A stretch of DNA of 64,000 nt from Clostridia bacterium (GTDB lineage Bacteria > Bacillota > Clostridia > Oscillospirales > CAG-272): positions 14,238 through 78,237 of the forward strand of contig JAFYMF010000005.1 of assembly GCA_017556745.1 (NCBI GenBank), given 5' to 3'. Within the stretch, counting starts at the first letter, position 1. Every line of letters starts with the position of its first letter. Shown here piece after piece: positions 17,552-45,673 of the stretch. Below the pieces are notes generated by a model that was given only the letters and a program-made list of their open reading frames with translations, did no database searches and was not told the origin of the DNA. The translations under genes and the position numbers were made by a program.

Positions 17552-17692
17552 ATTCTTATAATGGGGTAGAATGGTATCCTATATTTTTAGGACAATCATT
17601 TCCCTCTAACAGTTTTCAAATCCGATCCTGTGACGGCAGCCGCAGGACACGGAAGACCATATAATCACAGTTGCCGAGATTTGGAGAGTTTC

Positions 17693-19180: not shown

Positions 19181-19197
19181 TATAGGAGGAATCAAAA

Positions 19198-19620
19198 ATG
19201 ACACTTTTTAACCCGTCAAGACTCCTTGACGTTGATATCGGTGCTACCATGGGTAACAACGCCCCCCTCGGCGAGAGACTCAGTCTTGCACTTGAGGTAA
19301 CTATCCTCGGTATGGCAACCGTTTTCTCGGTACTGATAATCATTTGGGCTACACTCGCGCTTCTTCGTGTTCTCTTATACGGTATACCAAGCAAGAAAAC
19401 AAAAGAAGCAAGTGATAAGCAAGCTCCCAAAGAAAATCCCATACCGACACCGAGTTCTGCTGACACCGTGGCTGCCGTTGTGACTTCTCCTGCGGTAGAC
19501 GATAAGCAGTTGGTAGCGGTCATCACAGCCGCTATTGCCGCATCAGAGGGCAAGCCCGCATCTTCTCTGCGCGTAGTTTCGTTCAGACGTGCAGGTGCTC
19601 CTCGCTGGAACGAAAGATAA
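19198..19620 (+). CDS. OadG-family small membrane subunit (decarboxylase gamma/delta)
   Basis: A single N-terminal TM segment, LALEVTILGMATVFSVLIIIWATLALL, is followed by a Pro/Ala-rich tail, as in OadG/MmdD. Confidence 0.75.
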   Translation: MTLFNPSRLLDVDIGATMGNNAPLGERLSLALEVTILGMATVFSVLIIIWATLALLRVLLYGIPSKKTKEASDKQAPKENPIPTPSSADTVAAVVTSPAVDDKQLVAVITAAIAASEGKPASSLRVVSFRRAGAPRWNER

Positions 19621-19652
19621 AAAACTGATCTGTATCAAGAAAGAGGATAAAA

Positions 19653-20069
19653 ATGAAAAAATATAACATTACCGTTAACGGTACCGTATATGAAGTCGAA
19701 GTAGAAGAGGTTGGCGGTGCGTTTACCCCCTCCGCCGTTGCTGTTCCTACCGCTGCACCCGCAGCACCTGTGGCAACTCCCGCTGCAGCTCCTGCCCCTG
19801 CCGCAGCTCCTGCTCCCGCTCCCGCAGCGGCTCCTGCTGCTACCGGTGCGGCAGGCTCCGTTAAGATCACAGCACCCATGCCCGGCAGCATTCTCAAGGT
19901 CAACGTTACCGCAGGTCAGGCTGTAGCTAAGGGTGACGTTCTTTGCGTACTCGAGGCAATGAAGATGGAGAACGAGATAATGGCTCCCTCTGACGGAACC
20001 GTTGCTTCCGTTAACACTCAAAAGGGTGCATCTGTAAACTCCGGAGATCTTCTCCTTACTCTTGCGTAA
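19653..20069 (+). CDS. Biotin carboxyl carrier protein (1.3S / MmdC-like)
   Basis: An Ala/Pro linker precedes a biotinyl domain carrying the VLEAMKMENEI biotinylation motif. Confidence 0.9.
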   Translation: MKKYNITVNGTVYEVEVEEVGGAFTPSAVAVPTAAPAAPVATPAAAPAPAAAPAPAPAAAPAATGAAGSVKITAPMPGSILKVNVTAGQAVAKGDVLCVLEAMKMENEIMAPSDGTVASVNTQKGASVNSGDLLLTLA

Positions 20070-20106
20070 TCTGTTTTACAGAAATAATTAACAGAGGTTT
20101 ACAGCA

Positions 20107-21318
20107 ATGTCGGATTTTTTCTCAAACATAACTAATGCCGTTAAGGATTTCGTGGGAACTACCGGAATTGCTCAGATGCTTGAAAACAATGCGGATATGA
20201 TAAAGACCCTTATAATGTACGTTATAATCGGTGCTCTTTTCTATCTTGCAATAGTTAAAAAATTTGAGCCCCTTCTTCTTGTTACCATCGCATTCGGTAT
20301 GCTTCTTGCTAACCTTCCCGGTGCAAATCTGTTCCATATGGATCTTTTCATAAGTGAGGAAAGTTCATCTCTTGACATCGTAAAGATCGTCAACGAGGGT
20401 GGTCTTATAGATCTGCTTTACCTCGGTGTTAAGCTTGGTATCTATCCTTCACTTATCTTCCTTGGTGTCGGTGCAATGACCGACTTCACTCCCCTTATTG
20501 CAAACCCCAAGAGCCTTCTTCTCGGTGCGGCGGCTCAGTTCGGCGTTTTTGCCGCATTTACCGGTGCTCTCCTTATCGGTTTCTTCCCTGAGGCAGCAGC
20601 CGCTATCGGTATAATCGGCGGTGCTGACGGTCCTACCGCTATTCTTGTTACCAAGATACTTGCTCCCGAGCTTCTCGGTGCAATTGCTATCGCGGCATAC
20701 AGCTACATGGCTCTTATACCTATAATTCAGCCTCCCTTTATGAAGCTCCTCACTTCCAAGAAAGAGAGAGCTATAGTAATGGGTAACCTTCGTCCTGTTT
20801 CTCAGACTGAGAAGGTTCTCTTCCCTATCGTTGTTACTCTCGTAGTCGTTCTTATCGTTCCCGATGCGGCACCTCTCGTAGGTATGCTCATGCTGGGTAA
20901 TCTGTTTAACGTCTGCGGTGTTACCGACAGACTTTCAAAAACCGCACAGAACGGCCTTATCAACGCAGTTACCATCTGCCTCGGCGTATCTGTCGGTGCT
21001 ACAGCAAAGGCTGACACCTTCCTTTCCGTTCCCACTCTTTCCATCGTATTTCTCGGTCTTGCGGCATTTATCCTTTCCACTGTCGGAGGACTCCTTTTCG
21101 GAAAGCTTATGTGCTTTATTACCCACGGTAAGATCAATCCCCTTATCGGTTCCGCCGGCGTTTCCGCAGTTCCCATGGCGGCTCGTGTATCTCAGGTAGT
21201 AGGACAGAAGGAGAATCCATCCAACTTCCTTCTCATGCACGCTATGGGTCCCAACGTTGCGGGTGTTATCGGCTCTGCAGTTGCAGCCGGTGTATTCCTT
21301 ACCAGATTTGCCGGTTAA
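20107..21318 (+). CDS. Sodium-ion-translocating decarboxylase beta subunit
   Basis: A 403-aa polytopic protein. [25 protein letters not shown] and [21 protein letters not shown] are typical of OadB/MmdB/GcdB. Confidence 0.9.
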
Positions 21319-21342
21319 TTCAAACAGAAAGTGTAGAATATT

Positions 21343-22740
21343 ATGTCAAAAGTAAAAATAACAGAAACCGTGCTTCGTGACTCACATCAGTCACTGATAG
21401 CAACCAGAATGACTATCGACCAGATGATCCCGATCCTTGAGACTCTTGACAGCATAGGTTACCATTCTCTTGAGGCTTGGGGCGGTGCGACCTTTGACTC
21501 CTGTCTCCGCTTCCTTAACGAGGATCCCTGGCAGCGTCTCCGTATAATCCGTGACCATGTAAAGAACACCAAGCTTCAGATGCTTTTCCGTGGTCAGAAT
21601 ATTCTCGGATACCGTCACTATTCCGATGACGTTGTTGAGTATTTCGTGCAGAAGTGCGTTGCAAACGGTATTGATATTATCCGTATCTTCGATGCTCTCA
21701 ACGATCCCAGAAACCTTAAGACCGCTATAGATGCAACCAAGCGCGAGGGCGGACACGTTCAGGCCGCTATCAGCTATACCACCGGTCCCGTATACAGCAA
21801 CAAGTACTTTGCAGAGTATGCAAAGCAGCTTGAGGAAATGGGTGCTGACTCCATCTGTATCAAGGATATGTCCGGTCTTCTTAAGCCTTACGATGCATAC
21901 GATCTCGTTAAGGAGATCAAGAGCCGCGTAAGCCTTCCCGTTCAGCTTCATACTCACTATACCTCCGGTCTTGCTTCCATGACTCTCCTTAAGGCAATTG
22001 AGGCAGGCGTAGATATAGTTGATACTGCTATCTCCCCCATGGCTATGGGTACCTCTCAGCCCCCCACCGAGCCCCTTGTTGCTACTCTTGAGGGTACTGA
22101 GTACGATACCGGTCTTGATCTTAACAAGCTTGATGAGGTTTGTAAGTACTTCACTCCTCTCAAGGAAAAGTTCATGGCAGACGGTCTCCTTGACCCAAAG
22201 GTACTGAAGGTAGACATCAATGCTCTTCTCTATCAGGTTCCCGGTGGAATGCTCTCCAACCTTGTTTCTCAGCTTAAGCAGGCAGGCAAGAGTGATAAGC
22301 TTCTTGAGGTTCTTGCAGAGGTTCCGAAGGTTCGTGCTGATTCCGGTTATCCCCCTCTTGTTACTCCTTCCTCTCAGATTGTTGGTACTCAGGCAGTATT
22401 CAACATCATCGCAGGCGAGAGATACAAGATGGTTACCAAGGAGTTCAAGGGTCTTGTTCGCGGTGAGTACGGTAAGACTCCTGTTGATATCGATCCCGAA
22501 TTCCGTAAGAAGATCATTGGCGACGAGGAGGCTATTACCTGCCGTCCCGCTGATAATATTGCTCCAGAGCTTGATACTCTTCGTGAGAAAGCAAAGGGTT
22601 ATATGGAGCAGGACGAGGACGTACTTTCCTACGCACTCTTTGATCAGGTTGCCACCAAGTTCTTTGAGTGGCGCAGTGCACAGAAGTACAAGATCGACGC
22701 AGAAAACGCTGATCCCGATTCCAAGGTTCATCCCGTTTAA
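21343..22740 (+). CDS. Oxaloacetate decarboxylase alpha / pyruvate carboxyltransferase (5S type) lacking a biotinyl domain
   Basis: ITETVLRDSHQSL, LEAWGGATFD, IKDMSGLL and HTHYTSGLA indicate an HMGL-like TIM barrel, followed by a PYC_OADA region. The protein ends at 465 aa with no AMKM motif. Confidence 0.85.
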   Translation: MSKVKITETVLRDSHQSLIATRMTIDQMIPILETLDSIGYHSLEAWGGATFDSCLRFLNEDPWQRLRIIRDHVKNTKLQMLFRGQNILGYRHYSDDVVEYFVQKCVANGIDIIRIFDALNDPRNLKTAIDATKREGGHVQAAISYTTGPVYSNKYFAEYAKQLEEMGADSICIKDMSGLLKPYDAYDLVKEIKSRVSLPVQLHTHYTSGLASMTLLKAIEAGVDIVDTAISPMAMGTSQPPTEPLVATLEGTEYDTGLDLNKLDEVCKYFTPLKEKFMADGLLDPKVLKVDINALLYQVPGGMLSNLVSQLKQAGKSDKLLEVLAEVPKVRADSGYPPLVTPSSQIVGTQAVFNIIAGERYKMVTKEFKGLVRGEYGKTPVDIDPEFRKKIIGDEEAITCRPADNIAPELDTLREKAKGYMEQDEDVLSYALFDQVATKFFEWRSAQKYKIDAENADPDSKVHPV

Positions 22741-22762
22741 TAAACGAAGTCACAACAAAAAA

Positions 22763-22792
22763 AGAGGAACAGACAAAATTGTCTGTTCCTCT
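22763..22792. terminator. Bidirectional terminator between convergent operons
   Basis: agaggaacagac-aaaatt-gtctgttcctct is a 12-bp perfect stem with an A-run before and TTTT after. Confidence 0.85.
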
Positions 22793-22802
22793 TTTGCATT
22801 TG

Positions 22803-23870
22803 TTAAACTATTTCAAGAAAGTCTCTGTCAGGAAGTGCAGGATAATCGTCATCAAGATTATCGGAATACCAAAATGCAACGGAAGATATATCGTCCCTGA
22901 GAGGTAAATATCTCGCATCCTCACGTATACCGAGTGCCTGTATTGTAACACGTATATCAGAATCAAAATATATAGGATCTACTATATGCCAACGATAAAG
23001 ATTAAAACGTTGCTGAGACGAATACATTCCGTCAGGACGGGTTACCTTAGAAAGGCCCGCATAGGGTGTACAATATTCTACATATTTATTGTTGACATCA
23101 AAGTTATGAGACCCACAGAAATAATCCTCTGTCCCTGTACCGCATATTGTTGGGAAATCACGGTCACCGTCAAGGTAGAATTTTATTTCCCCCTCTCCCC
23201 ACCAACCGTTATTATTTGATCCCCAAAGCATATAAGTACCAACATACTGACCCTTGCCCTTTACATTGTCAAGAATAGTATAAACTTCCTTGTATGGAAC
23301 AGGATTTGTACGTCGAAACTGAGCATGTAAATAAGCAATATTGTCCGGCTGTTCGGTAAGAACATAGTCTATCTGGTAAAATACCATTATCTGCAAAGGA
23401 GAAATATTCTCTAAAGTGATCTTGAAATTTTTCTTGAAAGGCATGTCCCAGTAGCAATTAAATGCTCGGTTGGGATTAACGCAAACAGCGGCTGAAGTAA
23501 GCTGGCGGAAATCGTAGGGATCCGCACAGGCAAAAAAATCTCCGAATGGAACCTCCACCGATGGTTTATCACTGCCATCCCAATATATTCTAAGTATCAA
23601 TGAACGGTTAAGCCAACAGTTTTCTGTGATCCATATATGTCTGATAGACCCTTCACCGTCTATATCAGCCAATGTAAATGTCTCTCCTGCAGGAATATTC
23701 ACAGATGGTGATATCTTCCACCCTTGTCCAAGATCACGAGCGTTTACAGCACCTGTACCGTCGATAGCCATACCGCCCTTTCCTTTTTCACCGGTAAAAT
23801 TCTCTGCTGAAACAGAACGGCTCTTTGCATTAATAAGTCTCGAAAGATTGCTCATATTATCTGTAAACAT
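22803..23870 (-). CDS. DUF2961 / glycoside hydrolase family 172 protein, cytoplasmic
   Basis: SAENFTGEKGKGGMA...GWKISPSVNIPAGETFTLADIDGEGSIRHIWIT...LRIYWDG...VEVPFGDFF is the DUF2961 N-terminal signature. No signal peptide is present. An AGGAGG RBS precedes it, and only 51 nt separate it from the gene before, with no terminator. Confidence 0.8.
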   Translation of the reverse strand: MFTDNMSNLSRLINAKSRSVSAENFTGEKGKGGMAIDGTGAVNARDLGQGWKISPSVNIPAGETFTLADIDGEGSIRHIWITENCWLNRSLILRIYWDGSDKPSVEVPFGDFFACADPYDFRQLTSAAVCVNPNRAFNCYWDMPFKKNFKITLENISPLQIMVFYQIDYVLTEQPDNIAYLHAQFRRTNPVPYKEVYTILDNVKGKGQYVGTYMLWGSNNNGWWGEGEIKFYLDGDRDFPTICGTGTEDYFCGSHNFDVNNKYVEYCTPYAGLSKVTRPDGMYSSQQRFNLYRWHIVDPIYFDSDIRVTIQALGIREDARYLPLRDDISSVAFWYSDNLDDDYPALPDRDFLEIV

Positions 23871-23921: not shown

Positions 23922-24683
23922 TTACTGTTTAAATCTTGCTTTAGGATGGAAATCTCCGATCTCCCACCAATAATATCCCATACGGGAAAGAGCATATTCT
24001 CCACGTCTGATCATATCTACAAAATCAGCCATATCTTTCGCACGTCTGGGAAGGAAAACACCTCCGTATGGTTTTCCACCCTTATTATGATAGTCGGATC
24101 CGGTAATTGTCTTTATCTTATAGTGTTCTGCAAAATCAAGAGCCATATCATTACTGTATCTGTCGTTACTACCGTAATTAATACTTTCGATACCATCAAA
24201 CTTATCAGGATCGTAAGGTTCATCCTCTTTATTGTAAAGGTGATCCGGAAGAACGGTCATCCACATTCTGTACGGATGTGCGTGAAAAATAACACCGCCG
24301 TGGGAATGTACTATTTTTATTACGTCTTCAATCTTGCCGTATCCGAAATAAGGACCAAGGTCGAGAAGCATCTCCTTTGTCACTCCGTATATCAGATAAT
24401 CGTTGGAACAGCCCTTCATTGCAAGTTCCATACCGCAGAAAATATCAAGCTTATCTCCTGCAGCTTCTTTAAGACGTCTGTAACCGTTAAGATAGTATTC
24501 CGCAAGTTCTTCTGCATTTTTTTCGGTAAGTCCGCGATTCTTAAAAACACCGGGATTCCAGTGATTGGTGAGGTTGATTCCGGTATAGCCCTTTTCAAGA
24601 AATCTTTCAACAAGCTGTTCTGCAGTAGCAGAGGCACAGGGACTTACATCGACAGAGTGAACGTGCATTTCATACTTAAACAT
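23922..24683 (-). CDS. PHP-like metal-dependent phosphoesterase, type A (intact motifs), copy 1
   Basis: MFKYEMHVHSVDVSPCA gives HxH, followed by LTNHW, GMELA, FHAHPY, DGIESINY and TGSDYH. I chose the ATG at 24683, which has an AGGAGGTGA RBS. The track start at 24695 is a GTG. Confidence 0.7.
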   Translation of the reverse strand: MFKYEMHVHSVDVSPCASATAEQLVERFLEKGYTGINLTNHWNPGVFKNRGLTEKNAEELAEYYLNGYRRLKEAAGDKLDIFCGMELAMKGCSNDYLIYGVTKEMLLDLGPYFGYGKIEDVIKIVHSHGGVIFHAHPYRMWMTVLPDHLYNKEDEPYDPDKFDGIESINYGSNDRYSNDMALDFAEHYKIKTITGSDYHNKGGKPYGGVFLPRRAKDMADFVDMIRRGEYALSRMGYYWWEIGDFHPKARFKQ

Positions 24684-25416
24684 TTTGGATCTCACCTCCT
24701 GAGATCAGCTTATACTCTTCGTTGCTCAATATTTTCACAAGGTCGGAGTTGTCTTTAATTTTTTCTTCAGTAGCAATGCCACCTGCTATTCTGTCACCGA
24801 CACTTGAATATCCGGAACCGGAAATAGTAGGAGTATTATAATCTCTAGCCCATTTTTTTGTAAGAAAATGGTTTGCCTTTTCCTCATCCTTGGCAATATA
24901 AACCTCCATACCGTCAATTCGCTGTTCGAGAGGTCGTACCGCCGGTCTTAACTGATATACCTCTTCCACAACGCGGCTGTAAGGCATAAAAGGATGAGCC
25001 TGATAAATAAGCACGTCTCCAAGAGCATGTATGCGGGCAAAAATATCAGGAATCTTTTTCAACGAATATATACCGCTTAAATCAAACTCTGCAAGTTTCT
25101 CGGGGGTAAGACCGTAAACAAGATATTCATTAGTGCAGTGCTTAAATGTTACTTCTGCGCCAAGGAACACGTCAAGCTCTTTTCCTGCAACGTTCTTTAA
25201 CTTATAGTATCCCTCCAGATACTCCTCAGTTAACTGCTTCGGACTTTTATAAATATAATCACTTCTCTTAAAAGGTTGATAACCCCATGGATTGGTAAGT
25301 ACAATACCACTATAACCGGCTTTCAAATAATTCTCTACTACCTCCTCGGCAGAAGGAGCGTCAGAATATTTGGGAGCAAAGTCTTTGGTACTCAGATGTA
25401 ACTCGTACTTATACAT
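24676..25416 (-). CDS. PHP-like paralog, type B (degenerate metal site), copy 1
   Basis: It is homologous to type A, with the same MYKY start, LTNPW, GAE, DGMEVY and SGSG positions. However HxH is HLS, NH is NP and DxH is GYS. Its stop overlaps the A1 start by 8 nt (AATGTTTAA). Confidence 0.65.
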   Translation of the reverse strand: MYKYELHLSTKDFAPKYSDAPSAEEVVENYLKAGYSGIVLTNPWGYQPFKRSDYIYKSPKQLTEEYLEGYYKLKNVAGKELDVFLGAEVTFKHCTNEYLVYGLTPEKLAEFDLSGIYSLKKIPDIFARIHALGDVLIYQAHPFMPYSRVVEEVYQLRPAVRPLEQRIDGMEVYIAKDEEKANHFLTKKWARDYNTPTISGSGYSSVGDRIAGGIATEEKIKDNSDLVKILSNEEYKLISGGEIQNV

Positions 25417-25420
25417 TATT

Positions 25421-26188
25421 TTACCTCTTATCGGTCATAAATCTGTATTTCGGGTGTAACTCACCCATGATCGGTGAGTAGTCATCGGGGAGAACTAAGG
25501 CATAACGGTCATTTTGAAGAATATCTATCAGCTCAGCTGAGTTATGGATAATCTGCTCGGTGTAGATTCCACCCATATAACGTCTCTCACTGCCGTGATA
25601 GTCCGAACCCGTTATAGTCTTTAATTTATACGTCTCTGCCCAAAGCAAAGCTGTATCATTTGAAAAATAGTCGTCGTTACTGTAATTTACCGCTTCAATA
25701 CCGTCAACCTTATTACGTATTATACCGTCATCTTGAGTTCTAAAAATATCGGGACCCGTTACGTTAAGCCATGAACGAAATGGGTGAGAACGGTATATAA
25801 GACATCCGTGGTCGTGCGCGACCTCGGCAAGCTCCCCCGGAGAAAGCTTATAAAAATTTTTTCCCAGATCTATTAAAAAATCGCGGTCGATATTATACAC
25901 AAGATATTCGTTAGGCTCTAAGTCGATCTCAACGCCGCAGAAAACTGATAATTCATCGCCTGAAGCTTCACAGAGTCTCTTATAGCTATCCATAAAGAAA
26001 TCTGCCTGTTCCCCGATACTCTTTCCCTCGAGATTCATACAGTGAATTACTTCCCTGCTCCAGTGGTTGGTAATATTCACACCCGTATACCCAAAATCAC
26101 GGTATACCTGAGCAACCTGCTCGTGAGTTGCATCAGCGCATGGACTTACGTCTGCAGTATGAAGGTGCATCTCATATTTATACATCAT
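25421..26188 (-). CDS. PHP-like metal-dependent phosphoesterase, type A, copy 2
   Basis: MMYKYEMHLHTADVSPCA, ITNHW, GVEIDL, YRSHPF, DGIEAVNY, TGSDYH and a C-terminal HPKYRF. Confidence 0.7.
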   Translation of the reverse strand: MMYKYEMHLHTADVSPCADATHEQVAQVYRDFGYTGVNITNHWSREVIHCMNLEGKSIGEQADFFMDSYKRLCEASGDELSVFCGVEIDLEPNEYLVYNIDRDFLIDLGKNFYKLSPGELAEVAHDHGCLIYRSHPFRSWLNVTGPDIFRTQDDGIIRNKVDGIEAVNYSNDDYFSNDTALLWAETYKLKTITGSDYHGSERRYMGGIYTEQIIHNSAELIDILQNDRYALVLPDDYSPIMGELHPKYRFMTDKR

Positions 26189-26901
26189 ACTTCCTCCCCT
26201 TTGCAGATACTGTAGTCTCTGCTTTTTAAAACAGTCAACAGATCATCATTTGACAAAATCGGAGATTTTGTTATTATTCCACCACCAACATTTTCACCGC
26301 TGTGTGAAAGATCTGAACCGGAAATACCTCCTACACCGTAATACTCTGCCCTTGCCTGTGCAAAAGGATTACTGCACACATCAGCTTTACAGTGATTATA
26401 CACCTCAAGACCGTCTATGGTACGTAACGGATGTTTATCCTTTCCGTTAAGGTCAATTATTACAGAACCATTTGCGAAAGGCACCGCTTGATAGACAAGT
26501 ATATCTCCGCTGGAATGCAAATTGGTTATAAAATCGGTAAACCACATTGCATCGGAAATCGTTCTGTCATACTCGAGTATAAACTTGGGAGTCAAACCGT
26601 ATATCAAAAACTCACCCGAGGCACTCGGTACCGACATCTCAGCACCAAGAAGAACAACAAGGTCATTTCCGGCAACACTTCTAAGCTTTTCATATGCTGA
26701 AATAAATTCTTCACCAAGGGTTCTCATACTCTTTCCCGCATGCTGCTCATCGCTGAAAACTTTATTCCCCCAAGGATTGGTAAGAACGATTCCGCTATAA
26801 CCTGCTTCAATATGTGCAACAACAGTTTCCTCAGCAGAAATACTTGATCGTCCGCTATATGTAAAATCTGACGTAAGAGCATGAAGATCGTATTTATACA
26901 T
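26185..26901 (-). CDS. PHP-like paralog, type B (degenerate), copy 2
   Basis: MYKYDLHALT (second His lost), LTNPW, GAEMS, YQAVPF (His lost), DGLEVYN and SGSDLSH. Its stop overlaps the A2 start as ATGA. Confidence 0.65.
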   Translation of the reverse strand: MYKYDLHALTSDFTYSGRSSISAEETVVAHIEAGYSGIVLTNPWGNKVFSDEQHAGKSMRTLGEEFISAYEKLRSVAGNDLVVLLGAEMSVPSASGEFLIYGLTPKFILEYDRTISDAMWFTDFITNLHSSGDILVYQAVPFANGSVIIDLNGKDKHPLRTIDGLEVYNHCKADVCSNPFAQARAEYYGVGGISGSDLSHSGENVGGGIITKSPILSNDDLLTVLKSRDYSICKGEEV

Positions 26902-26906
26902 TGATT

Positions 26907-27680
26907 TTACCTCTTTATGCTCGTAAATCGGTATTTCGGATGCATTTCGCTGACACCTGCAACCGGTCCGTCAGGAAGAGATAATGCATATTGTTTATTA
27001 TTAAGCACATCTATCAGCTCTGATTGTGAGTTGATAGGTTTCTCGGTATATATTCCACCCCAGGGATTATTCCACTCTCCATGATAGTCTGAGCCGGTTA
27101 TGGTTCTTAAATCATGCTCCTTTGCCCAGTTAAGAGCCATATCATCTGTATAATGATCACCGTGGCTGTAATTTATCGCCTCTATTCCGTCAACCTTATC
27201 CCGTGACATAGCTTCATCCACATGACGGAATATATCTGTGGGAAGAATCGTAAGTCCGTCTCTGAATGGATGTGACTGATATATCAGGCATCCATGATCG
27301 TGAGCAATACGTGTAAGTTCTTCCTGAGTAAGCTTATAGAAGGACATACCCAAATCTAATATAAAATCTCTGTCGATATTATAAATAAGGAACTCACAGT
27401 ATGCGGGTTGGTCTATCTGAACCTCAACACCGCAGAAAACAGAGAGCTTTCCCTCGGCAGCTTCCTTCATTTTCAGATATCCGTTCATAAAGAAATCAGC
27501 CCTCTCCTGTAGGTTAAATCCTTCAACATTCATATAATGCAGAACTTCTCTGCTCCAATGATTTGTAACATTTACTCCTGTGTATCCTTTCTCGCAGTAA
27601 GCATTAACTACTTGCTCCGGAGTAGCTTGCGCACAAGGACTTACATCGGCAGTATGAAGGTGCATCTCGTATTTATACAT
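26907..27680 (-). CDS. PHP-like metal-dependent phosphoesterase, type A, copy 3
   Basis: MYKYEMHLHTADVSPCA, VTNHW, GVEVQI, YQSHPF, DGIEAINY, TGSDYH and HPKYRF. I chose the ATG at 27680, which has a GGTGAGGA RBS. The track start at 27695 is a GTG. Confidence 0.7.
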   Translation of the reverse strand: MYKYEMHLHTADVSPCAQATPEQVVNAYCEKGYTGVNVTNHWSREVLHYMNVEGFNLQERADFFMNGYLKMKEAAEGKLSVFCGVEVQIDQPAYCEFLIYNIDRDFILDLGMSFYKLTQEELTRIAHDHGCLIYQSHPFRDGLTILPTDIFRHVDEAMSRDKVDGIEAINYSHGDHYTDDMALNWAKEHDLRTITGSDYHGEWNNPWGGIYTEKPINSQSELIDVLNNKQYALSLPDGPVAGVSEMHPKYRFTSIKR

Positions 27681-28389
27681 TTTTATTTTCCTCACCTACA
27701 AGAATATATTTTCTGTTTTTCAAAACAGATACAAGGTCAGCATTTGAAGTTATAGGCTTTTCAGTAAGAATTCCGCCGCAAACGCTTCCGCCACGGTAAG
27801 AAAGATCGGAGCCGGACACTGCACCCACGTTATAATGCTCAGCACGTGCCGCGGCAAAGTGATTACAACACACATCCGCTCTGCGATGGTTATAGACCTC
27901 AAGGCCATCTGCCATGCGTTCCGGATGTTCTTCTGAAAAATCAACGACAACCGACCACGGTGCAAAGGGAGATGCTTGATATACTAACACGTCTCCCTTA
28001 GAATGAACATATGATGCAAAATCGGAAAACCAATCCTTATCTGCGCGGTGCGGTTCATACTCAAGTAAAAACTCCGGTGTAATACCGTATAAAAGGAAAT
28101 TACCGTTAGCACACTCTACCGTCGCCTCTGCTCCTAAAAATATATCCAGAGCATTTCCTGCAGCAGTCTTTATCTTTTCGTATGCGGCAAGGAATTCCTC
28201 TGCCAATTGCTTTACATCCTTACCATCGTGAGATGGGTCACTAAATATCTTTTTTCCCCAAGGATTGGTAAGCACCATTCCGCGGTATCCTGCGAGGATA
28301 TGTACCTCGACAGTCTCTTCCGCGGAAATATCAGAGCGGCCGTTGTATGTAAAATCTGCTGTTAATGAATGAAGATCGTATTTGTACAT
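27673..28389 (-). CDS. PHP-like paralog, type B (degenerate), copy 3
   Basis: MYKYDLHSLT, LTNPW, GAEATV, YQASPF, DGLEVYN and SGSDLSY. I chose the ATG at 28389, which follows an AGGTGA RBS just after the ygjP-like stop. Its own stop overlaps the A3 start by 8 nt (AATGTATAA). Confidence 0.65.
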   Translation of the reverse strand: MYKYDLHSLTADFTYNGRSDISAEETVEVHILAGYRGMVLTNPWGKKIFSDPSHDGKDVKQLAEEFLAAYEKIKTAAGNALDIFLGAEATVECANGNFLLYGITPEFLLEYEPHRADKDWFSDFASYVHSKGDVLVYQASPFAPWSVVVDFSEEHPERMADGLEVYNHRRADVCCNHFAAARAEHYNVGAVSGSDLSYRGGSVCGGILTEKPITSNADLVSVLKNRKYILVGEENKNV

Positions 28390-28398: not shown

Positions 28399-28926
28399 CT
28401 ATTTATTTCTGAGCGAATATTGTAATACCTTATAATTCGGGAGATAATTCTCTATCAAACTATAAAAACGATTACCGTGATTTTTCTCTTTTATATGTGC
28501 TAGCTCATGGACGATAATATAATCTATCTCATCTGCCGTCAAACGCATAGTAAAGCATGAGAAGTTTAATCCATTCTTCGGACTGCAACTACCGTATCTG
28601 GTACGAGCACGGGTTATTCTGATACCTGTATAGGTAAGTCCCATTACCTTTGACCAATACTCAACCCGTGACGGAATATATTTCTTGGCGGTCTCTGTCA
28701 ACGCTTTTATATCGCCGTCGTCACCGACTGCAAAAATATCACGTCTTTCTGAAATTTGCTTTAATTTTTTTAAAACCCAATCGTTGTGCTTTTCTATGAA
28801 AGAAATGACATCTCCATCTCTTGCCCTTTGCGGTACACGTACTTTAACGGCACCGTCTCTTGTTACCTCAAGAGAATAGCTTTTGCGCTTTGAACGAATA
28901 ACGGTATAATCAAAGTTAAATTTCAT
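28399..28926 (-). CDS. YgjP-like (DUF45 / SprT-like) zinc metallohydrolase
   Basis: YTVIRSKRKSYSLEVTRDGAVKVRVP at the N-terminus and HELAHIKEKNHGNRFY (HExxH) at the C-terminus. Length is 175 aa. Confidence 0.8.
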   Translation of the reverse strand: MKFNFDYTVIRSKRKSYSLEVTRDGAVKVRVPQRARDGDVISFIEKHNDWVLKKLKQISERRDIFAVGDDGDIKALTETAKKYIPSRVEYWSKVMGLTYTGIRITRARTRYGSCSPKNGLNFSCFTMRLTADEIDYIIVHELAHIKEKNHGNRFYSLIENYLPNYKVLQYSLRNK

Positions 28927-28935: not shown

Positions 28936-30216
28936 TTATGCAAGCAAAGAATCAAACGCTGACTTAATGTCAGAATACATATACAGCGAACCGAATGCAG
29001 CGATTACTTTCACACCCTCGTTTTTGGCTTCTTCATAAGCTGAAGCTACTGCACTCTGAATACTGTCATACGCAACAGACGTCTTCCCTTTTTCACGGAA
29101 CACTTCTGCAAACTCCTCTGCAGGAAGAGACCTGGGATTATTTGGAGTTACAGTGAACACCTTGCTGACAATAGGTAAAACAATATCAGCAAGTTCCCGA
29201 TAATTCTTATCAGCCATTACCCCTGTTATAAGATATATCTTTTCACCGCCAAAATACTGTTCTATACTTTCAACCGCCGCCCTGATACCGTGAGGATTAT
29301 GAGCACCATCAAGGATTACATACGGTTCCTTTGATATTATTTCGAAGCGTGCAGGCCACCTGACAGTCCCAAGTCCTGCTTTAACAGTATCATTGGTAAT
29401 ACCTGTGAATTTCTCCTTAAGTATCTCAGTCGCCTCAAGAACCATTGCCGTATTCTTTTTCTGAAACATCCCTACAAGAGGTACGGTTACACTGTCATAG
29501 TTTTTATACGCAATACTTGTACCGCAAACAGACGAACCAAGATCATGAATAAGACTAAAATCGGGAGAATAGAGCATTGCTCTTTTTTCTTCCGCAACAG
29601 CTCTTATAACTTTTTCTGCCTCCGGATTCTCTCCGTAGAAAAGTACAGGACAACCGTCCTTAATTATTCCTGATTTTGCGGTTGCAATCTGACTGTAATC
29701 CGAACCGAGCTCTTTTGTATGGTCAAGTCCGATGGCGGTTATAACAGATAGATCGGGAGAAGTAATAACATTGGTAGAATCAAGTCCACCGCCCATACCA
29801 ACCTCAAGAACAACTACGTCACATGCGTTACGTCTGAAATACTCAAATGCCGCCACAGTTATAAGTTCAAATTCAGTCGGTTTATCCTCCATAGCCTCAG
29901 CATGGGGTTTAATAAAGCTGATAACTTCTACAAGCTCATCATCCGGAATATTCTGTCCGTTTATTCTCATTCTCTCGTTAAAGGTAACGATATATGGAGA
30001 GGTATAAAGACCGGTTTTATATCCCGATTTTTCAAGTATACTCGCAAGCATACAGGAAAAGGAACCCTTACCGTTGGTACCTGCAACGTGGACGAAACGA
30101 AGTTCTCTATGAGGATTACCGATACGGTCAAGAAGTTCTATAGTTCTCTCAAGTCCAAGCCGAGATCCGCGCCAATTTACGCTGTGTATATATTCTATTG
30201 TTTCATTGTAAGTCAC
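28936..30216 (-). CDS. folC: Folylpolyglutamate synthase / dihydrofolate synthase
   Basis: VHVAGTNGKGS gives the P-loop. YTSPYIVTFNERMRING and the Mur-ligase-like layout also fit. Length is 426 aa. Confidence 0.9.
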   Translation of the reverse strand: MTYNETIEYIHSVNWRGSRLGLERTIELLDRIGNPHRELRFVHVAGTNGKGSFSCMLASILEKSGYKTGLYTSPYIVTFNERMRINGQNIPDDELVEVISFIKPHAEAMEDKPTEFELITVAAFEYFRRNACDVVVLEVGMGGGLDSTNVITSPDLSVITAIGLDHTKELGSDYSQIATAKSGIIKDGCPVLFYGENPEAEKVIRAVAEEKRAMLYSPDFSLIHDLGSSVCGTSIAYKNYDSVTVPLVGMFQKKNTAMVLEATEILKEKFTGITNDTVKAGLGTVRWPARFEIISKEPYVILDGAHNPHGIRAAVESIEQYFGGEKIYLITGVMADKNYRELADIVLPIVSKVFTVTPNNPRSLPAEEFAEVFREKGKTSVAYDSIQSAVASAYEEAKNEGVKVIAAFGSLYMYSDIKSAFDSLLA

Positions 30217-30230: not shown

Positions 30231-30764
30231 TTATTTTTTTCGCTGAACAGGTAGTATTCCTCGCCTCATAATAAACAAAATAGCAAAGAATTCAACAGTT
30301 CCTACCACAAGGGACACGCCCAAACCTATAAAAGCCCCGACCGTAGGCATACCGAGCCAAAGGATTTTGGCGATAGATTTTATAATGACCTGTCCTATAA
30401 TATGGGCAGAGGCTACTGCAAATGAGTATTGCACGCCGCCTCTTTTTCTAAATATATACCTCGGTACAGCACCCGAACAAAAGCCCACCGCCGCGGCACC
30501 GAGAGTTATAAGCGGAATCACAGCGGGATTGGATGAACAAAGGCAACTGAGCAAGTCAGCACAAATACCGCAAGCAGCACCGTAAAATGGACCGAAAGTA
30601 ATGCCTGCAAGAATTATCGGCAGGTTTTCAAACGTTACTCTGTAATAAACGTTGAAGGTAAAAAAATTCTTACAAACAATGCCGATTATTACACTGAGTG
30701 CCGTAAGCATTGCAACTGCGGTAATAGTCTGAGTTTTTGAAAAGACACTTGAATTTTTTTGCAT
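30231..30764 (-). CDS. folT: ECF-transporter S component, probably folate-specific (FolT-like)
   Basis: A 177-aa protein with about six TM segments, sitting immediately downstream of a THF riboswitch and upstream of folC. Specificity is inferred from this context. Confidence 0.65.
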   Translation of the reverse strand: MQKNSSVFSKTQTITAVAMLTALSVIIGIVCKNFFTFNVYYRVTFENLPIILAGITFGPFYGAACGICADLLSCLCSSNPAVIPLITLGAAAVGFCSGAVPRYIFRKRGGVQYSFAVASAHIIGQVIIKSIAKILWLGMPTVGAFIGLGVSLVVGTVEFFAILFIMRRGILPVQRKK

Positions 30765-30836
30765 AAAAAATATCCTCCTTTACAAACAGGGTGCGCTATC
30801 GCTGCAGCCACATAAAGGAAGATACTATCCTTATGT

Positions 30837-31155: not shown

Positions 31156-32658
31156 TCAGTTACCAAAAATCTTATTATTAAGTTCTTTTACTAAAAGTTT
31201 GAGTACCCTGTTTTTACTTGCAAGATTAGTTGTAAACTCGCTCAACTTATTATTTTCTACAGGATATCTAAAGAGGAATGAGCCTATCTCTCCCATTTGT
31301 TTGTCATATGTAAGCCCTGCATCAACTCTCGTATTAGTTATAATCATGTCAAACATATTTCTGGACTGTGGATCGCTTAGATATTTTCCTTTAAGTACCA
31401 TCTCTGAATATACAGGAATAACTTTACGCCAGGTCTCGGCGCTGAGTGCTTCCAGAATAGCGGTTGCCATCTCGGGGTTTCTGTTGGTTTTTGGCACACT
31501 GTAAGTCTGAAACCTCTCGAAAGGCATTGAATAATATTCTTTCTGCTTTTCATCATATTTTGGCATCGGAAGTATACCGTAATCATCCTGCATGTTACGG
31601 AATTCAGGAGTTTCAGCACATACAAGCTTCTGGGTAATCATAAACACATTGCCTGATGTAAACAAAGTATCAGCATCCTTCGCTGCTGTTATGTTGCTGA
31701 ACGCACCTTCACCGTAACAAAGCGCTAATATTTTTTCAAGTCCGTTATATGCCTTTTCTTCATTGAGCACAAACTCATACTCACCTATATCATTATATGC
31801 AAGAATGTCGATATCAAATGCACTCCAATAGGAATCTGTTGACCAATAGAGAGGAGAGCAATAGCCGTAGGTATCATCCATATCTCGAGTATCATCACCG
31901 TCAAGATCAGAATACATTCCTGATACAAGAGCAATCTGATAGTCTATTGTCCAATTTCCGTTATTAACTACATCATAAAGATTTTCAACTTTCTGTTCTT
32001 CAGCAATTCTCTTGTTGAAGAATGTTGCATGAATAGAACGAGTCATTGACAGTGACAAAGATCCGGCAAGTAAATAAATTTCATCATCATTGCAAATCTC
32101 ATCAAAAAACTGTCCTGACCACCATGGAGCCTCAGGATCTATATAATCAGTCTTAAGATCAAGAACATTATGGTAATATCCATCAATGGCATAGGAAACA
32201 GATTCAGCAGCTCCAAGCCCGATAATCTGATATGCATCCTCATCGGCACCAAATGTTATTTCAAGTATCTCACGAATTCTCGATGAGTCCTCACATACAC
32301 TCTCAATCTTACAGTTAAACCGTTCCATGACATACAAATTACGGTTATAAATAGAGTCATTGAGCGGTTCACTTGTCAGCTCATCTACCCAGAGCTCATT
32401 ATCGTATACATATCTGGTCGAGGAAGTGTTGATAACTGGAGCAAGTGAAAGAATACGAATTGTCTCTCCGCCGAAATTAAGAGCCGGAACACCATCCTCA
32501 AGATCACGATAGAGTTGAACTATTCCGTTCGGATTCTCATTCAAACTTGCGGTAGTTACAGACGTATCCGTATCTTTACTGCTGTCTACCCCAACCGAAC
32601 ATGAACATAACAATATTGCTATGAAAAGTGCAAGAGCGATAAGACGTATTTTTCTCAT
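31156..32658 (-). CDS. SBP-like lipoprotein paralog 1 (putative family-1 extracellular solute-binding protein, ~500 aa)
   Basis: Signal peptide plus Cys (LFIAILLCSCS), a Ser/Thr/Asp linker, then conserved blocks shared with four neighbours: NPNGI.QLYRD, GGETIRIL, WVDELTSEPLNDSIYNRN, APWWSGQFF, LAGSLSLSMTRSIHATFFNKRIAEE, NMQDDYGILPMPKYDEKQ.EYYSMPFE and VLKGKYLSDPQSR.MFDMI. The SBP assignment itself is by architecture only. Confidence 0.6.
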   Translation of the reverse strand: MRKIRLIALALFIAILLCSCSVGVDSSKDTDTSVTTASLNENPNGIVQLYRDLEDGVPALNFGGETIRILSLAPVINTSSTRYVYDNELWVDELTSEPLNDSIYNRNLYVMERFNCKIESVCEDSSRIREILEITFGADEDAYQIIGLGAAESVSYAIDGYYHNVLDLKTDYIDPEAPWWSGQFFDEICNDDEIYLLAGSLSLSMTRSIHATFFNKRIAEEQKVENLYDVVNNGNWTIDYQIALVSGMYSDLDGDDTRDMDDTYGYCSPLYWSTDSYWSAFDIDILAYNDIGEYEFVLNEEKAYNGLEKILALCYGEGAFSNITAAKDADTLFTSGNVFMITQKLVCAETPEFRNMQDDYGILPMPKYDEKQKEYYSMPFERFQTYSVPKTNRNPEMATAILEALSAETWRKVIPVYSEMVLKGKYLSDPQSRNMFDMIITNTRVDAGLTYDKQMGEIGSFLFRYPVENNKLSEFTTNLASKNRVLKLLVKELNNKIFGN

Positions 32659-32802
32659 TTTCAGTCTCCTTTTTGTCTGTAAAATTTTTATGCTATGTTT
32701 TTATATTAATTCGAATAGACAAACAGCATATCTATCGTCAAATATAACACAGCACATTTTTAGTGATTTTCGACAAAGAATACAGAACTTTTCATTTTTT
32801 AT

Positions 32803-32831
32803 AGTATATCATACACATATTTCTTTTGCAA
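32803..32831 (-). promoter_or_regulatory. Candidate promoter of lipoprotein paralog 1
   Basis: Minus strand reads TTGCAA (32831-32826), 17 nt spacer, TATACT (32808-32803), with TGa upstream. It is homologous to the folT promoter region. Confidence 0.45.
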
Positions 32832-32867
32832 GCAATTACACAAAAAAATACCATTTTCAGTAAAAAA

Positions 32868-32897
32868 ATATCCGACGTTGATTTGAACGTCGGATAT
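32868..32897. terminator. Terminator hairpin (copy 2 of the repeated cassette)
   Basis: atatccgacg-ttgatttgaa-cgtcggatat has a stem identical to copy 1 and a loop that is approximately its reverse complement. It directly follows the deacetylase stop. Confidence 0.75.
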
Positions 32898-32907
32898 TTC
32901 TTGTTTA

Positions 32908-33999
32908 TCAGTATTTAAGTCTGAAAAGCCAGTCGGAATCAAGCTCGTCAAGAGTAGCAAAAGTATATCCGCTGGACAGAAGAGTTTCAATTATATACGG
33001 AAGAGCCTCTACGGTAGGCGAAGTAGTGTCGTGCATGAGCATGATCTTCGGGTAACGTGCCGAACAACTGTTTATTGTCTCAATCGCCGAACGCTTAAGG
33101 TATTCAACCTCAGGCATATCCTCAGGCTTGCCGCCGAGATAACGATCATTATTTGCACATGTCCAGTCAAAACTTATGTACCCGATATCCTTTACTGCCT
33201 GATAAAACGCAGGAAAATCAGACTTCGGCAGTGCATAGTTGTTTGAACCACCCGGGAATCTGAATATTTTTTGTTCAGGTATGTATCCCAGAGCTTTTTC
33301 AACCTCTGCTTCCCATTTTCTGATATCATTTACAAGAGACTCGGGGGTAGCATATACATCATCAAACTCATGTGAATAGGTATGACAAGCTACAACGTGA
33401 CCTGCCGCCACCATGTTTCTCACTCTCTGCGGATAATAGGAAACAAAGGTACCGACGGTGAAAAACGTTGCCTTGACACCGTAGTTGTCAAGTATCTCAA
33501 GCACAGCATCGTTATACTTGTTAGGTCCGTCATCAAAGGTCAAATATATAACCTTCTCCCCATTACCCTGAACGTTTGTGGGAAGATCGTCAGGGGTAAC
33601 AGTAGGGGGTGCAGTGGTTTCCTCCGGACCGAGACTTACTATAACAGTAATCGGATATGCCTCGTTAATGCGAAGATACGATTCCTCTTCTCTGCCGACA
33701 TAATTACAGGATATAACAACGCCTGCTTCTATGTCCGAATGAGTGTACGAAAAAGAATATTTAATTTTTGTGTTGTCAAAAATTGCTGAAACCTCCGGCT
33801 CTGTTTTACCGACAAGGTTAGGAATGGTTATAAATACTTCTCTGGCTGTGGTCAGTTCTTTGGTTACCCATTCCATCGTACTGTTATCAGTACCGCTGGT
33901 TTCCGTTGCCCCTGTGGTAACCTCTGTACATCCGATACCGAGGGACAAAACAACGACAGAAAGCAAGAACAATGCAATGTACTCTTTAAATTTTTTCAT
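32908..33999 (-). CDS. Lipoprotein polysaccharide deacetylase (CE4 NodB domain) with an N-terminal PASTA-like module
   Basis: Lipobox LSLGIGCT. IPNLVGKTEPEV resembles a PASTA-like strand. NodB motifs are YLTFDDGP, ACHTYSH and RFPGG, with LMHD late in the sequence. Confidence 0.8.
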   Translation of the reverse strand: MKKFKEYIALFLLSVVVLSLGIGCTEVTTGATETSGTDNSTMEWVTKELTTAREVFITIPNLVGKTEPEVSAIFDNTKIKYSFSYTHSDIEAGVVISCNYVGREEESYLRINEAYPITVIVSLGPEETTAPPTVTPDDLPTNVQGNGEKVIYLTFDDGPNKYNDAVLEILDNYGVKATFFTVGTFVSYYPQRVRNMVAAGHVVACHTYSHEFDDVYATPESLVNDIRKWEAEVEKALGYIPEQKIFRFPGGSNNYALPKSDFPAFYQAVKDIGYISFDWTCANNDRYLGGKPEDMPEVEYLKRSAIETINSCSARYPKIMLMHDTTSPTVEALPYIIETLLSSGYTFATLDELDSDWLFRLKY

Positions 34000-34044
34000 T
34001 AATTTTTTACCGTCCTGCTACGATGTAATTTTCAGTAAAATATA

Positions 34045-35559: not shown

Positions 35560-35629
35560 TATTATTTTCTCATTTCTGCTTATAAAAATTCTAATTTAAC
35601 TTTCAAGATTACTTTATCACAAAAACATG

Positions 35630-37129: not shown

Positions 37130-37206
37130 TGTGATCTTTCACTTTCTTTTTTTAGTAAGCTTCCTTTTTGACTGTAACATTACTTTGCTACTAAAAAATC
37201 GACTTA

Positions 37207-38724: not shown

Positions 38725-38827
38725 GATAGTACCTCTATTTATTCTTAATATTCGAAAGCAATTTAACTTTAACAACAATGTTTAGGCAATGGTAACTGCG
38801 TTAATTTTCATTCTGGATTGGTGCAAA

Positions 38828-42466: not shown

Positions 42467-43314
42467 TGAGTGAAAAATACATTGACCTTCATACTCATAC
42501 AGTACATAGCGACGGTTCTATGACCCCCACCGAGGTTGTCGAGGAAGCGGCGCGTGCGGGACTTGCCGCAATCGCGGTATCTGACCATGACTGCATGGAC
42601 GGTGTGGAGGAAGCACTTGAGGCTGGTAAGCGATTAGGTGTTGAAGTAATACCCGCCGTTGAACTTTCAGTTCAGAGTGAAACAGAGACACACATTCTCG
42701 GTTACTGCATTGATATACATAACAAGGCAATGGTAGACAAGCTTGAAGAGGTCAAGCGGGTTCGTGTCACCAGAAACGAGGAAACCTGTGAAAATCTTCG
42801 CCGTCTCGGCTTTGACGTAACTATGGATGAGGCTTTGGCACTTGCTCCCGGCGGACTTATTGGTCGTGCCCATTTTGCAAGGGTTATGGCTAACAAGGGT
42901 TACGTTTCTTCTGTCAAAGAAGCATTTGACCTTTATCTCGCTAACGGACGTCCCGGATATTCAAACACTCAGTGTCTTACCCCAGAGGAGGGTGTTGAGT
43001 TGATAAAGGAAGCCGGCGGCGGTGCATTTGTTGCTCATTTGCACCTGATAAAGATAGCTGACGATCCCCTGAGAGAGTTTCTCAAGAGACTCATGAATGT
43101 GGGACTTGACGGTATCGAGGGTTATTACACCGAATATACACCCTATATGGAGGCAAGATATCAAGCTATGGCAAGAGAGCTTGGGCTCATGATGTCCGGC
43201 GGTACCGACTTCCACGGTAAAATGAAGCCACATATTTCAATAGGATGCGGTCTCGGTGAAATGAAAATACCATACGCTCTCGCAGAAAACATAATAAACA
43301 AATTCGGCAGATAA
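42466..43314 (+). CDS. PHP-domain phosphoesterase, TrpH/YciV-like, copy 1
   Basis: IDLHTHTVHSDGSMTP, AVSDHDCMDG, IPAVELSV, THILGY, FVAHLH and SGGTDFHG form the canonical PHP motif set. The ATG overlaps the LarA-like stop as TAATG. Confidence 0.85.
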   Translation: MSEKYIDLHTHTVHSDGSMTPTEVVEEAARAGLAAIAVSDHDCMDGVEEALEAGKRLGVEVIPAVELSVQSETETHILGYCIDIHNKAMVDKLEEVKRVRVTRNEETCENLRRLGFDVTMDEALALAPGGLIGRAHFARVMANKGYVSSVKEAFDLYLANGRPGYSNTQCLTPEEGVELIKEAGGGAFVAHLHLIKIADDPLREFLKRLMNVGLDGIEGYYTEYTPYMEARYQAMARELGLMMSGGTDFHGKMKPHISIGCGLGEMKIPYALAENIINKFGR

Positions 43315-44181: not shown

Positions 44182-44200
44182 AGGAAGGTAAAAGATAAAA

Positions 44201-45652: not shown

Positions 45653-45673
45653 TAAAGAAAGGCGGATACAAAG

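Follow-up and report, generated by a model that had tools for sequence, protein, structure and literature searches.

We analysed a 64,000-nucleotide stretch of DNA from an uncultured Clostridia bacterium (GenBank assembly GCA_017556745.1, contig JAFYMF010000005.1, positions 14,238 to 78,237; the whole stretch is called the window below) and found that its minus strand carries, between positions 23922 and 28389, an array of six genes in which two related types of PHP-fold protein alternate. The three A genes encode predicted hydrolases with an intact active site and the three B genes encode degenerate paralogues that have lost most of it. The array lies behind a tetrahydrofolate (THF) riboswitch and three further genes, folT, folC and a ygjP-like gene. 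We put at about one in two the probability that the array encodes three heteromeric enzymes, each made of one dead and one live PHP subunit, which were multiplied by duplication within an operon headed by the THF riboswitch and whose substrate is a metabolite related to folate, pterin or folate stress. The folT-folC-ygjP context is the most informative feature of the locus, and it was absent from the preliminary description of this DNA, which a model had made from the sequence.

The six open reading frames (ORFs) are arranged in the transcription order B3-A3-B2-A2-B1-A1. They occupy positions 27673-28389 (B3, 238 amino acids), 26907-27680 (A3, 257 amino acids), 26185-26901 (B2, 238 amino acids), 25421-26188 (A2, 255 amino acids), 24676-25416 (B1, 246 amino acids) and 23922-24683 (A1, 253 amino acids), all on the minus strand, and both these positions and the alternation of two types agree with the preliminary description. 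Each ORF begins with ATG behind a GGAG/AGGT-type (Shine-Dalgarno-like) ribosome-binding site. At the B-to-A junctions the reading frames overlap, by 8 nt (B3/A3), 4 nt (B2/A2) and 8 nt (B1/A1), and 5 and 4 nt separate the genes at the A-to-B junctions. At the protein level A2 and A3 are 61% identical and B2 and B3 62%, against 41-42% between A1 and A2/A3 and 39-45% between B1 and B2/B3, so that units 2 and 3 are indeed the closest, as had been judged by eye; A and B share 29-36% of their residues. Across the array copies the period of about 1.49 kb is only 60-80% identical in DNA, and synonymous sites are saturated between the paralogues (proportion of synonymous differences, pS, 0.69-0.82), which rules out a recent duplication or an assembly artefact. 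The copies are old, as had been supposed.

Structure models place both types in the PHP fold (Pfam PF02811), a (beta/alpha)7 barrel of the CL0034 type. AlphaFold models, built with alignments made from subfamily relatives, had a mean predicted local distance difference test score (pLDDT) of 92.0 and a predicted template modelling score (pTM) of 0.91 for A2, and 95.3 and 0.93 for B2. The best Foldseek match was TM0559 (2ANU) in both cases, with E = 3.5e-12 for A2 and E = 3e-8 for B2 (template modelling score, TM, 0.65-0.72), followed by RNase AM, BVU_3505, polymerase PHP domains and histidinol phosphatases; the Foldseek probability of the two models was 1.00 to 2ANU, 7UG9, 3E38, the Pol III/PolC PHP domains and the histidinol phosphatases. 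A and B also share a common subfamily profile. By these models A and B are both PHP-fold paralogues, in line with the homology first proposed from their motifs.

Searches with known families and single sequences placed the proteins less precisely. A1 passed the Pfam gathering thresholds for PHP (27.1 bits; gathering 26.4) and PHP_C (23.9 bits; gathering 21.3), and B1-B3 had no Pfam PHP match, B2 having only a sub-threshold PHP_C match of 15.1 bits. The NCBIfam scan gave only sub-threshold matches to HisJ, CehA/McbA, RNase AM and pAp phosphatase families, from which no equivalog could be assigned: the best score of any array protein was 37.1 bits to TIGR01856 (cut-off 90.2), with 21.9 bits to NF047791 (cut-off 375) and 21.2 bits to NF041577 (cut-off 400). 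Word-indexed homologue searches returned only 7 matches each, and the names given in the source records went no further than "hypothetical protein" or "PHP domain-containing protein". Compared by sequence with the PDB, A1 and B2 gave nothing significant, and only the subfamily profile reached 2ANU and RNase AM. A reading of the array as a defence system was dropped after PADLOC models gave no match.

The profile was built from A, B and a small number of closely related proteins. Of 1.84 billion cluster representatives, it matched 3766 with E <= 1e-3 and, at the stricter limit of E <= 1e-30, 516. Most matches are proteins of about 225 amino acids with Pfam PHP and PHP_C, and the relatives P0017-P0024 score 34-61 bits to Pfam PHP, above gathering. 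A hidden Markov model (HMM) of the subfamily gave 215-268 bits over positions 2-222 for the six array proteins, which its alignment includes, and 170-265 bits for independent members. The layout of the subfamily is HxHT..S.C ... NH ... E ... QAHPFR ... DG.E..N ... GSD.H, and a 13-position consensus signature, HHCHEHRENHNDH, was seen in 93 of 175 domains. On profile evidence, A and B belong to a large uncharacterised subfamily of PHP+PHP_C proteins found mostly in Clostridia.

To compare the active sites, residues were numbered as in A2 and conservation was scored over 97 sampled subfamily members. Invariant or nearly invariant among these relatives are H8, H10, S15, C17, H42, E87, H135, P136, R138, E165, N168, N177, D196 and H198. 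The A proteins retain every subfamily-invariant residue; their signatures, HHCHEHRENDNDH in A1 and A2 and HHCHEHRENDDDH in A3, agree with the consensus at 12 or 11 of the 13 positions, and the positions where they deviate vary in the wider subfamily too. One of these is position 173, where A has Asp; 73 of the 97 relatives have His there and the others vary. The Cys of the VSPCA motif (C17), which had been described as a trait of the A copies, proved to be a hallmark of the whole subfamily, being found in 97/97 members, and it lies at or adjoining canonical ligand 3, a position held by Asp or His elsewhere among PHP proteins.

The nine metal ligands of PHP proteins are H, H, D/H, H, E, H, C/H, D/N and H (PMC3666897, Table 1). 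In A they correspond to H8, H10, C17 (for D/H), H42, E87, H135, D196 and H198, that is eight of nine with one atypical, positions 3, 6 and 7 being assigned by profile alignment and not from a metal-bound structure. A Leu that is invariant across the subfamily, A and B included (L96), aligns to a His of TM0559 that we take to be canonical ligand 6, as in the TrpH family; therefore the parent subfamily itself departs from the canonical nine. The full ligand set formerly ascribed to A thus holds only roughly, with two departures, D173 in place of His and L96 in place of the aligned TM0559 His.

The B proteins depart widely from the consensus. Their signatures are HSSPEHMEIEHGS (B1), HLSPEVAENDNDS (B2) and HLNPESAENDNDS (B3), with B2 and B3 following the pattern HL(S/N)PE(V/S)AENDNDS. 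H10, C17, H42, H198 and R138 (the Arg of HPFR) are lost from every B, H135 additionally from B2 and B3, and D196 from B1, leaving about three of the nine canonical ligands; H8, E87, E165 and a few other residues are kept. The motif changes reported earlier were all seen in the alignment, namely HxH to H-L-S, H-A-L or H-S-L, NH to NP, HP to VP or SP in B2 and B3, and DxH to GYS or DLS, together with the retention of the Glu and the DG.E block, and so was the general claim that most ligands are gone. The surviving residues differ between B1 and B2/B3, which argues against a common reduced catalytic site. The pattern of substitutions supports the view that B is a PHP paralogue without a catalytic apparatus.

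A separate variant of the metal site was noticed among solo members of the subfamily. At loci L017, L019-L025 and L035 the otherwise invariant Cys is replaced by Val, Phe, Ala or Asp and position 173 is usually Glu (Pro in L025) and not His, giving the signature HH[VFAD]HEHREN[EP]NDH. This suggests that the subgroup has an alternative metal site.

B-type genes were found in five related lineages of uncultured metagenome-assembled genomes (MAGs), that of the window and four others, all four from metagenomes; the names of three refer to goat colon, water-buffalo cecum or yak rumen. No further B-type gene was found in scans of 185,579 species genomes and the JGI metagenome collection, and the metagenome scan gave only ordinary intact subfamily members. 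A sister species (L061, GCA_017558955.1) has the same gene order with proteins 84-89% identical. The goat-colon species is represented by loci L014, L006 and L001 (RGIG2161). A yak-rumen MAG (L015) has a single pair resembling B1-A1 (61% and 64% identical), and in a MAG labelled Lachnospiraceae (L016) the contig ends within B. The B3 orthologue is 88% identical in L061 and 77% in L006; B1 shares 85% of its residues with the L006 orthologue and 61% with the one B gene product of L015. Overall, B orthologues are 58-88% identical between species. The proportion of nonsynonymous differences (pN) between them lies at 0.11-0.27 while pS is saturated; where dN/dS could be computed it was 0.06-0.14, a constraint similar to that on FolC and YgjP at the same loci. 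Thus B is maintained, as had been proposed, and these values support strong purifying selection.

The B-A adjacency is likewise conserved. A follows B wherever the contig extends beyond B, in four of the five genomes, the fifth being L016. Copy numbers are equal in the whole arrays, with three of each type in the window and L006 and one of each in L015, and the cut contigs of L014 and L061 show two of each.

In a neighbour-joining (NJ) tree, B was monophyletic with 100% bootstrap support and A was monophyletic together with P0022 with 93%, and the A and B subtrees had the same shape. The A and B distance matrices correlated with r = 0.968, the highest value of all 5040 possible pairings. Since both clades are monophyletic and their trees mirror each other, the pair arose once and was then duplicated. 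The arrangement in the goat-colon species complicates the picture: the order in L006 is B3'-A*-B*-A3'-B1'-A1', so that the A3 orthologue (82% identical) does not adjoin the B3 orthologue, a fast-diverged A* and B* lying between them, and the mirror-tree correlation falls to 0.82 when adjacent genes of L006 are paired. The mirrored trees support the earlier proposal in so far as a pair was duplicated, but amplification "as a B-A unit" is too simple in view of these non-adjacent partners. The simplest account is that a tandem duplication gave B-A-B-A and that one A and one B then diverged together, namely the final two genes in the lineage of the window and the inner two in the other. Such co-divergence of non-adjacent A and B is the pattern that interacting partners would be expected to show, and is not proof of interaction. 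For the timing of the duplication of units 2 and 3 relative to the species split, NJ support was 71-92%, and rate artefacts are likely.

Among the top 150 profile representatives, several metagenomic proteins contain two PHP barrels. In P0018 a dead N-terminal barrel precedes an intact C-terminal one; P0128 has the reverse order, intact then dead; in P0017 the second half is without the Cys and the NH His; and P0019 is also a two-domain fusion. The possibility that the dead half of P0018 is a fused B was rejected, solo members scoring 72-90 bits to it and B only 54-70 bits, and the dead halves of the fusions are nearer to generic subfamily members than to B. Dead/live two-barrel units have therefore evolved repeatedly, independently of the B clade, which lends support to two barrels working together (the Rosetta-stone argument). 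Other architectures also occur in the subfamily: in P0088 the PHP domain is fused to a calcineurin-like phosphoesterase, and in P0125 it stands behind an unrelated N-terminal region of about 280 amino acids.

Upstream of B3, on the same strand, lie a riboswitch and three genes. The THF riboswitch aptamer (RF01831, 30837-30938) was matched over the full model by Infernal with 76.5 bits (gathering 36) and E = 1.8e-16. Directly behind it is a gene for an energy-coupling factor (ECF) transporter S component of the FolT type (30231-30764; Pfam ECF_trnsprt, 46.3 bits), followed after 14 nt by a FolC-like folylpolyglutamate synthase gene (28936-30216; Pfam Mur_ligase_M and Mur_ligase_C), whose orthologue in L001 carries FOL3_C too. 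The third gene encodes a YgjP-like (M48/SprT-like) zinc metallohydrolase (28399-28926; PF01863, 141.7 bits) with gaps of 9 nt to both folC and B3. After the aptamer comes a putative expression platform hairpin (30758-30835, minus strand; minimum free energy -28.6 kcal/mol, z = -3.4 versus shuffles), in which AAAGGAGGAUAU pairs with an upstream CU-rich stretch and which, as folded, may sequester the folT ribosome-binding site and start codon.

Downstream, 51 nt past A1, follows a gene for a glycoside hydrolase of family GH172 (DUF2961; 22803-23870, minus strand; PF11175, 295 bits), perhaps the final gene to be transcribed with the unit, and then a strong bidirectional intrinsic terminator (22760-22795), whose 16-bp stem has 6 G-C pairs and is flanked by a T-run on either strand. 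Up to A1, no gap in the unit exceeds 14 nt, and no terminator comparable to that at 22760-22795 was found between position 22795 and the riboswitch. From these short gaps and the lack of a strong internal terminator, we infer that the PHP genes are probably co-transcribed with folT-folC-ygjP, and the array would then form the tail of a putative operon, THF riboswitch-folT-folC-ygjP-like-(B-A)n. GH172 is present in the sister species (L007) and replaced by a GH25 gene in L015, and therefore lies outside the conserved core.

The same arrangement was found in the relatives. A THF riboswitch precedes folT in L001, L002, L014, L015 and L016 (70.8-84.5 bits), and the order riboswitch-folT-folC-ygjP-B(-A) is kept in all four related lineages with contigs that extend to it, with one or three B-A pairs behind the folate block; a fifth contig starts inside folC. 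The block is retained though FolC identity drops to 48-57% and that of the L016 S component to 27%, and though the flanks differ on both sides, with GH25 for GH172 downstream and a sulfatase or other genes upstream. Two wider associations were ruled out: solo subfamily genes are not riboswitch-controlled at the 19 loci concerned, where no THF riboswitch occurs, and ygjP is not generally linked to folC, since YgjP homologues at 46-51% identity are not beside it. Neither FolC nor YgjP was found near the solo loci L017-L042. In Pseudoruminococcus massiliensis (L063, 6001-7950) the gene for serine hydroxymethyltransferase, a folate-dependent enzyme, has a YgjP-like gene (46% identical) immediately upstream, which may be another sign that YgjP is connected with folate.

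On the explanation that we favour, the six genes would be three paralogous two-subunit enzymes. A would be a cytoplasmic metal-dependent PHP hydrolase, most likely a phosphoesterase, and B its catalytically dead sister, kept as a partner for stability, substrate binding or regulation, probably in a two-barrel assembly like that of the fused members of the subfamily. The pair would descend from a solo gene of the large, mostly clostridial subfamily, with one A and one B co-diverging after each duplication. When reduced folate is scarce, the pairs would be made together with the proteins of folate uptake and polyglutamylation, and their substrate may be a folate-, pterin- or folate-stress-related metabolite, or one with a non-phosphoester bond.

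Several points weigh against this explanation. The expression platform looks like a hairpin that hides the ribosome-binding site of folT, and control of genes 2-9 kb downstream would have to come about through coupling or polarity. To our knowledge, folate salvage by FolT and FolC has no phosphorylated intermediate. The chemistry of A need not be phosphoester hydrolysis at all, as may be seen from a weak similarity to the CehA/McbA carbamate hydrolases (NF038032, 25-31 bits; cut-off 80), and the Pfam PHP scores of A2 (17.9 bits) and A3 (22.6 bits) are beneath the gathering threshold of 26.4. The neighbours of solo members (n = 111), among them LacI regulators (7), PfkB kinases (5), HAD hydrolases (5) and AraC regulators (4), lean towards sugar metabolism instead. 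B genes occur in only five MAG lineages, which are related, and shared ancestry could account for part of the conservation of gene order. The genes that co-evolve in the RGIG2161-like species are g1 with g4 and g2 with g3, not the overlapping B-to-A neighbours, and therefore gene order alone does not define the pairs; on this pattern a larger mixed oligomer is equally possible, TM0559 having six chains in the crystal.

The alternative that stands up best, though we consider it rather unlikely, is that the folate context is incidental and that the B-A proteins are sugar-phosphate or nucleotide phosphoesterases which were inserted behind folT-folC-ygjP in the ancestor of a narrow clade and are functionally nearer to GH172. 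The solo-member neighbours, the confinement of B to five related lineages and a riboswitch platform that seems to act on folT translation all fit such an origin, as does the recurrence of GH172, which follows A1 in the window and in L007 and of which a further gene, in L019 at 15186-16304 (568 bits to the window GH172), lies about 4.5 kb from a solo PHP gene on the opposite strand. However, GH172 is not conserved, its place being taken by GH25 in L015, whereas the block from riboswitch to B, and on to A where the contig continues, has survived a fall of FolC identity to 48%, the replacement of FolT by a protein 27% identical and full turnover of both flanks. The 9-nt gap between ygjP and B3 is, moreover, too small for a promoter or terminator.

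That A and B form no complex is unlikely. In that case A would act alone, B would be an independent pseudoenzyme with a ligand-binding or regulatory role, and the alternation of the genes would be a mere footprint of tandem duplication; that most subfamily members are single-gene, single-domain proteins and that the phylogenetic partners in L006 are not adjacent in B-to-A order would fit such an arrangement. Against it stand the 1:1 copy numbers in all complete arrays and the finding that no complete locus has B without A, the stop/start overlaps, which suggest coupled translation, the mirror-tree correlation, the highest of all 5040 pairings, and the independent dead/live fusions.

A much more specific form of the folate explanation was also considered and appears improbable to us. 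The B-A pairs would be heteromeric PHP hydrolases of folate metabolism, induced through the THF riboswitch when folate is scarce and acting on a phosphorylated pterin, folate precursor or folate-stress metabolite; the three diverged pairs would have three substrate specificities, and the dead subunit would make up part of the substrate pocket. Candidate substrates would be dihydroneopterin mono- or triphosphate, hydroxymethyldihydropterin diphosphate and nucleotides of the type of 5-aminoimidazole-4-carboxamide ribonucleotide (ZMP/AICAR), which build up at low 10-formyl-THF. The removal of the last phosphate of dihydroneopterin is still ascribed to a "non-specific phosphatase" (PMC1971073).

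It is very improbable that all six proteins form a single mixed hetero-oligomer, for example an alternating A/B ring, instead of three dimers. The equal number of three A and three B genes and the six chains in the entry of TM0559, the closest solved structure, would suit a ring, and the interleaved co-evolution partners of L006 would be easier to tolerate in a mixed assembly. The single pair of L015, however, implies that a 1:1 unit is sufficient, the chain count of 2ANU is the content of the entry and not a biological-assembly assignment, and the fusion proteins hold two domains and no more. Least probable of all is that B is still an enzyme, with a reduced mononuclear site made from retained His, Glu and Asp (or His) or with other chemistry, for although B is as conserved as A between species and B2 and B3 keep E165 and N168 besides H8, E87 and D196, of which the last three would, if the comparison with histidinol-phosphate phosphatase holds, make up three of four alpha-metal ligands, B1 keeps H8, E87 and H135 with Gly for D196, so that no site is common to all B, five of the nine canonical ligand positions are now Leu, Ser, Pro, Val or Ala, and R138, present in 97/97 relatives, is lost in every B.

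The remainder of the window holds several other features. Five tandem paralogues of about 500 amino acids resembling lipoproteins lie upstream on the minus strand (31156-32658, 34045-35559, 35630-37129, 37207-38778 and 38828-40333); they are 59-68% identical pairwise, have no Pfam family match and are interrupted by a polysaccharide deacetylase gene at 32908-33999. This series (31156-40333) is a second, unrelated tandem amplification beside the PHP array. On the plus strand, after a LarA_N-like gene (41201-42466), are two TrpH-like PHP paralogues (42466-43314 and 43324-44181), 61% identical to each other, the first with AHLH and the second with AHPH; both match Pfam PHP, in agreement with their original annotation. 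A 902-aa minus-strand ORF without a Pfam match (44147-46855) overlaps plus-strand ORFs at 44201-45652 and 45674-46750, and the G + C content of this segment is 0.48-0.50, compared with about 0.41 elsewhere. On the other side of the array, a plus-strand cluster for a Na+-translocating decarboxylase (17630-22740), comprising a carboxyltransferase, a biotin-carrier-like Ala/Pro-rich protein, an OAD beta subunit and an OadA-like carboxylase, converges on the GH172 end of the operon, and the bidirectional terminator at 22760-22795 is common to both.

If the pairing is true, this would be the first PHP-family enzyme built of a live and a dead paralogue, and solo gene, gene pair, triplicated pairs and independent fusions would form a natural series for the origin of a pseudoenzyme partner. 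The placement behind a THF riboswitch nominates the PHP pairs and the YgjP-like metallohydrolase as folate-linked proteins of ruminant-gut Clostridia. The restriction to five uncultured MAG lineages narrows the immediate impact; any activity found here would nevertheless propagate widely through the parent subfamily, in whose metal site a Cys is invariant and which numbers at least 516 cluster representatives at E <= 1e-30.

Literature searches revealed no described heteromeric or pseudo-PHP enzyme pair, and no PHP or YgjP member of the THF regulon. The nearest structures are those of TM0559 (2ANU) and BVU_3505 (3E38), the best structural matches of A2 and B2 (TM 0.6-0.7), which like A and B have a single-barrel PHP core of the form HxH...NH/DH...E...HP...DxH without the TrpH insertion. 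They differ from the array proteins in being only 14-18% identical and in having Asp, not Cys, after HxH, and TM0559 also in having His where the array subfamily has an invariant Leu. Both are structural-genomics targets, "predicted PHP-family metal-dependent phosphoesterases" of uncharacterised function, with no dead partner known. The TrpH/YciV enzymes (RNase AM; Cv1693 3',5'-nucleoside bisphosphate phosphatase, 2YB1) and the HisJ-type enzymes belong to the same superfamily and share its metal-ligand logic, but A and B score far beneath the cut-offs of these families (90-400 bits) and lack the TrpH insertion domain, and none of these enzymes is heteromeric.

Enzymes made of a catalytic subunit and a paralogue without catalytic residues are known in other folds, as in the "prozymes", for example S-adenosylmethionine decarboxylase (AdoMetDC) and its prozyme in trypanosomatids, and AbgA/AbgB of E. 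coli is a folate-catabolite hydrolase of two paralogues. These resemble the array in combining a catalytic with a non-catalytic paralogue whose genes are adjacent and co-inherited, AbgAB being also folate-related; they differ in fold (pyruvoyl decarboxylase and M20 peptidase, respectively), and none is known to be triplicated. The THF-I riboswitch regulon of Firmicutes (folT, folC, folE and folQPBK) has the same aptamer family at the same place upstream of folT-folC, whereas a ygjP-like gene and PHP pairs are not among the folate-linked genes in PMC1971073.

The closest precedent for a dead barrel is the PHP domain carried by E. coli DNA polymerase III alpha, which has lost five of the nine ligands and kept the fold in a structural, non-catalytic role, and the loss of ligands correlates with the presence of another catalytic protein (PMC3666897). 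There, however, the dead barrel is a domain of the polymerase and its partner an unrelated DEDD exonuclease, whereas B is a separate gene product whose partner is an intact paralogue of the same subfamily, duplicated together with it. Dead PHP barrels and dead-paralogue heteromers of other folds are already known; a heteromer of live and dead PHP subunits would be new.

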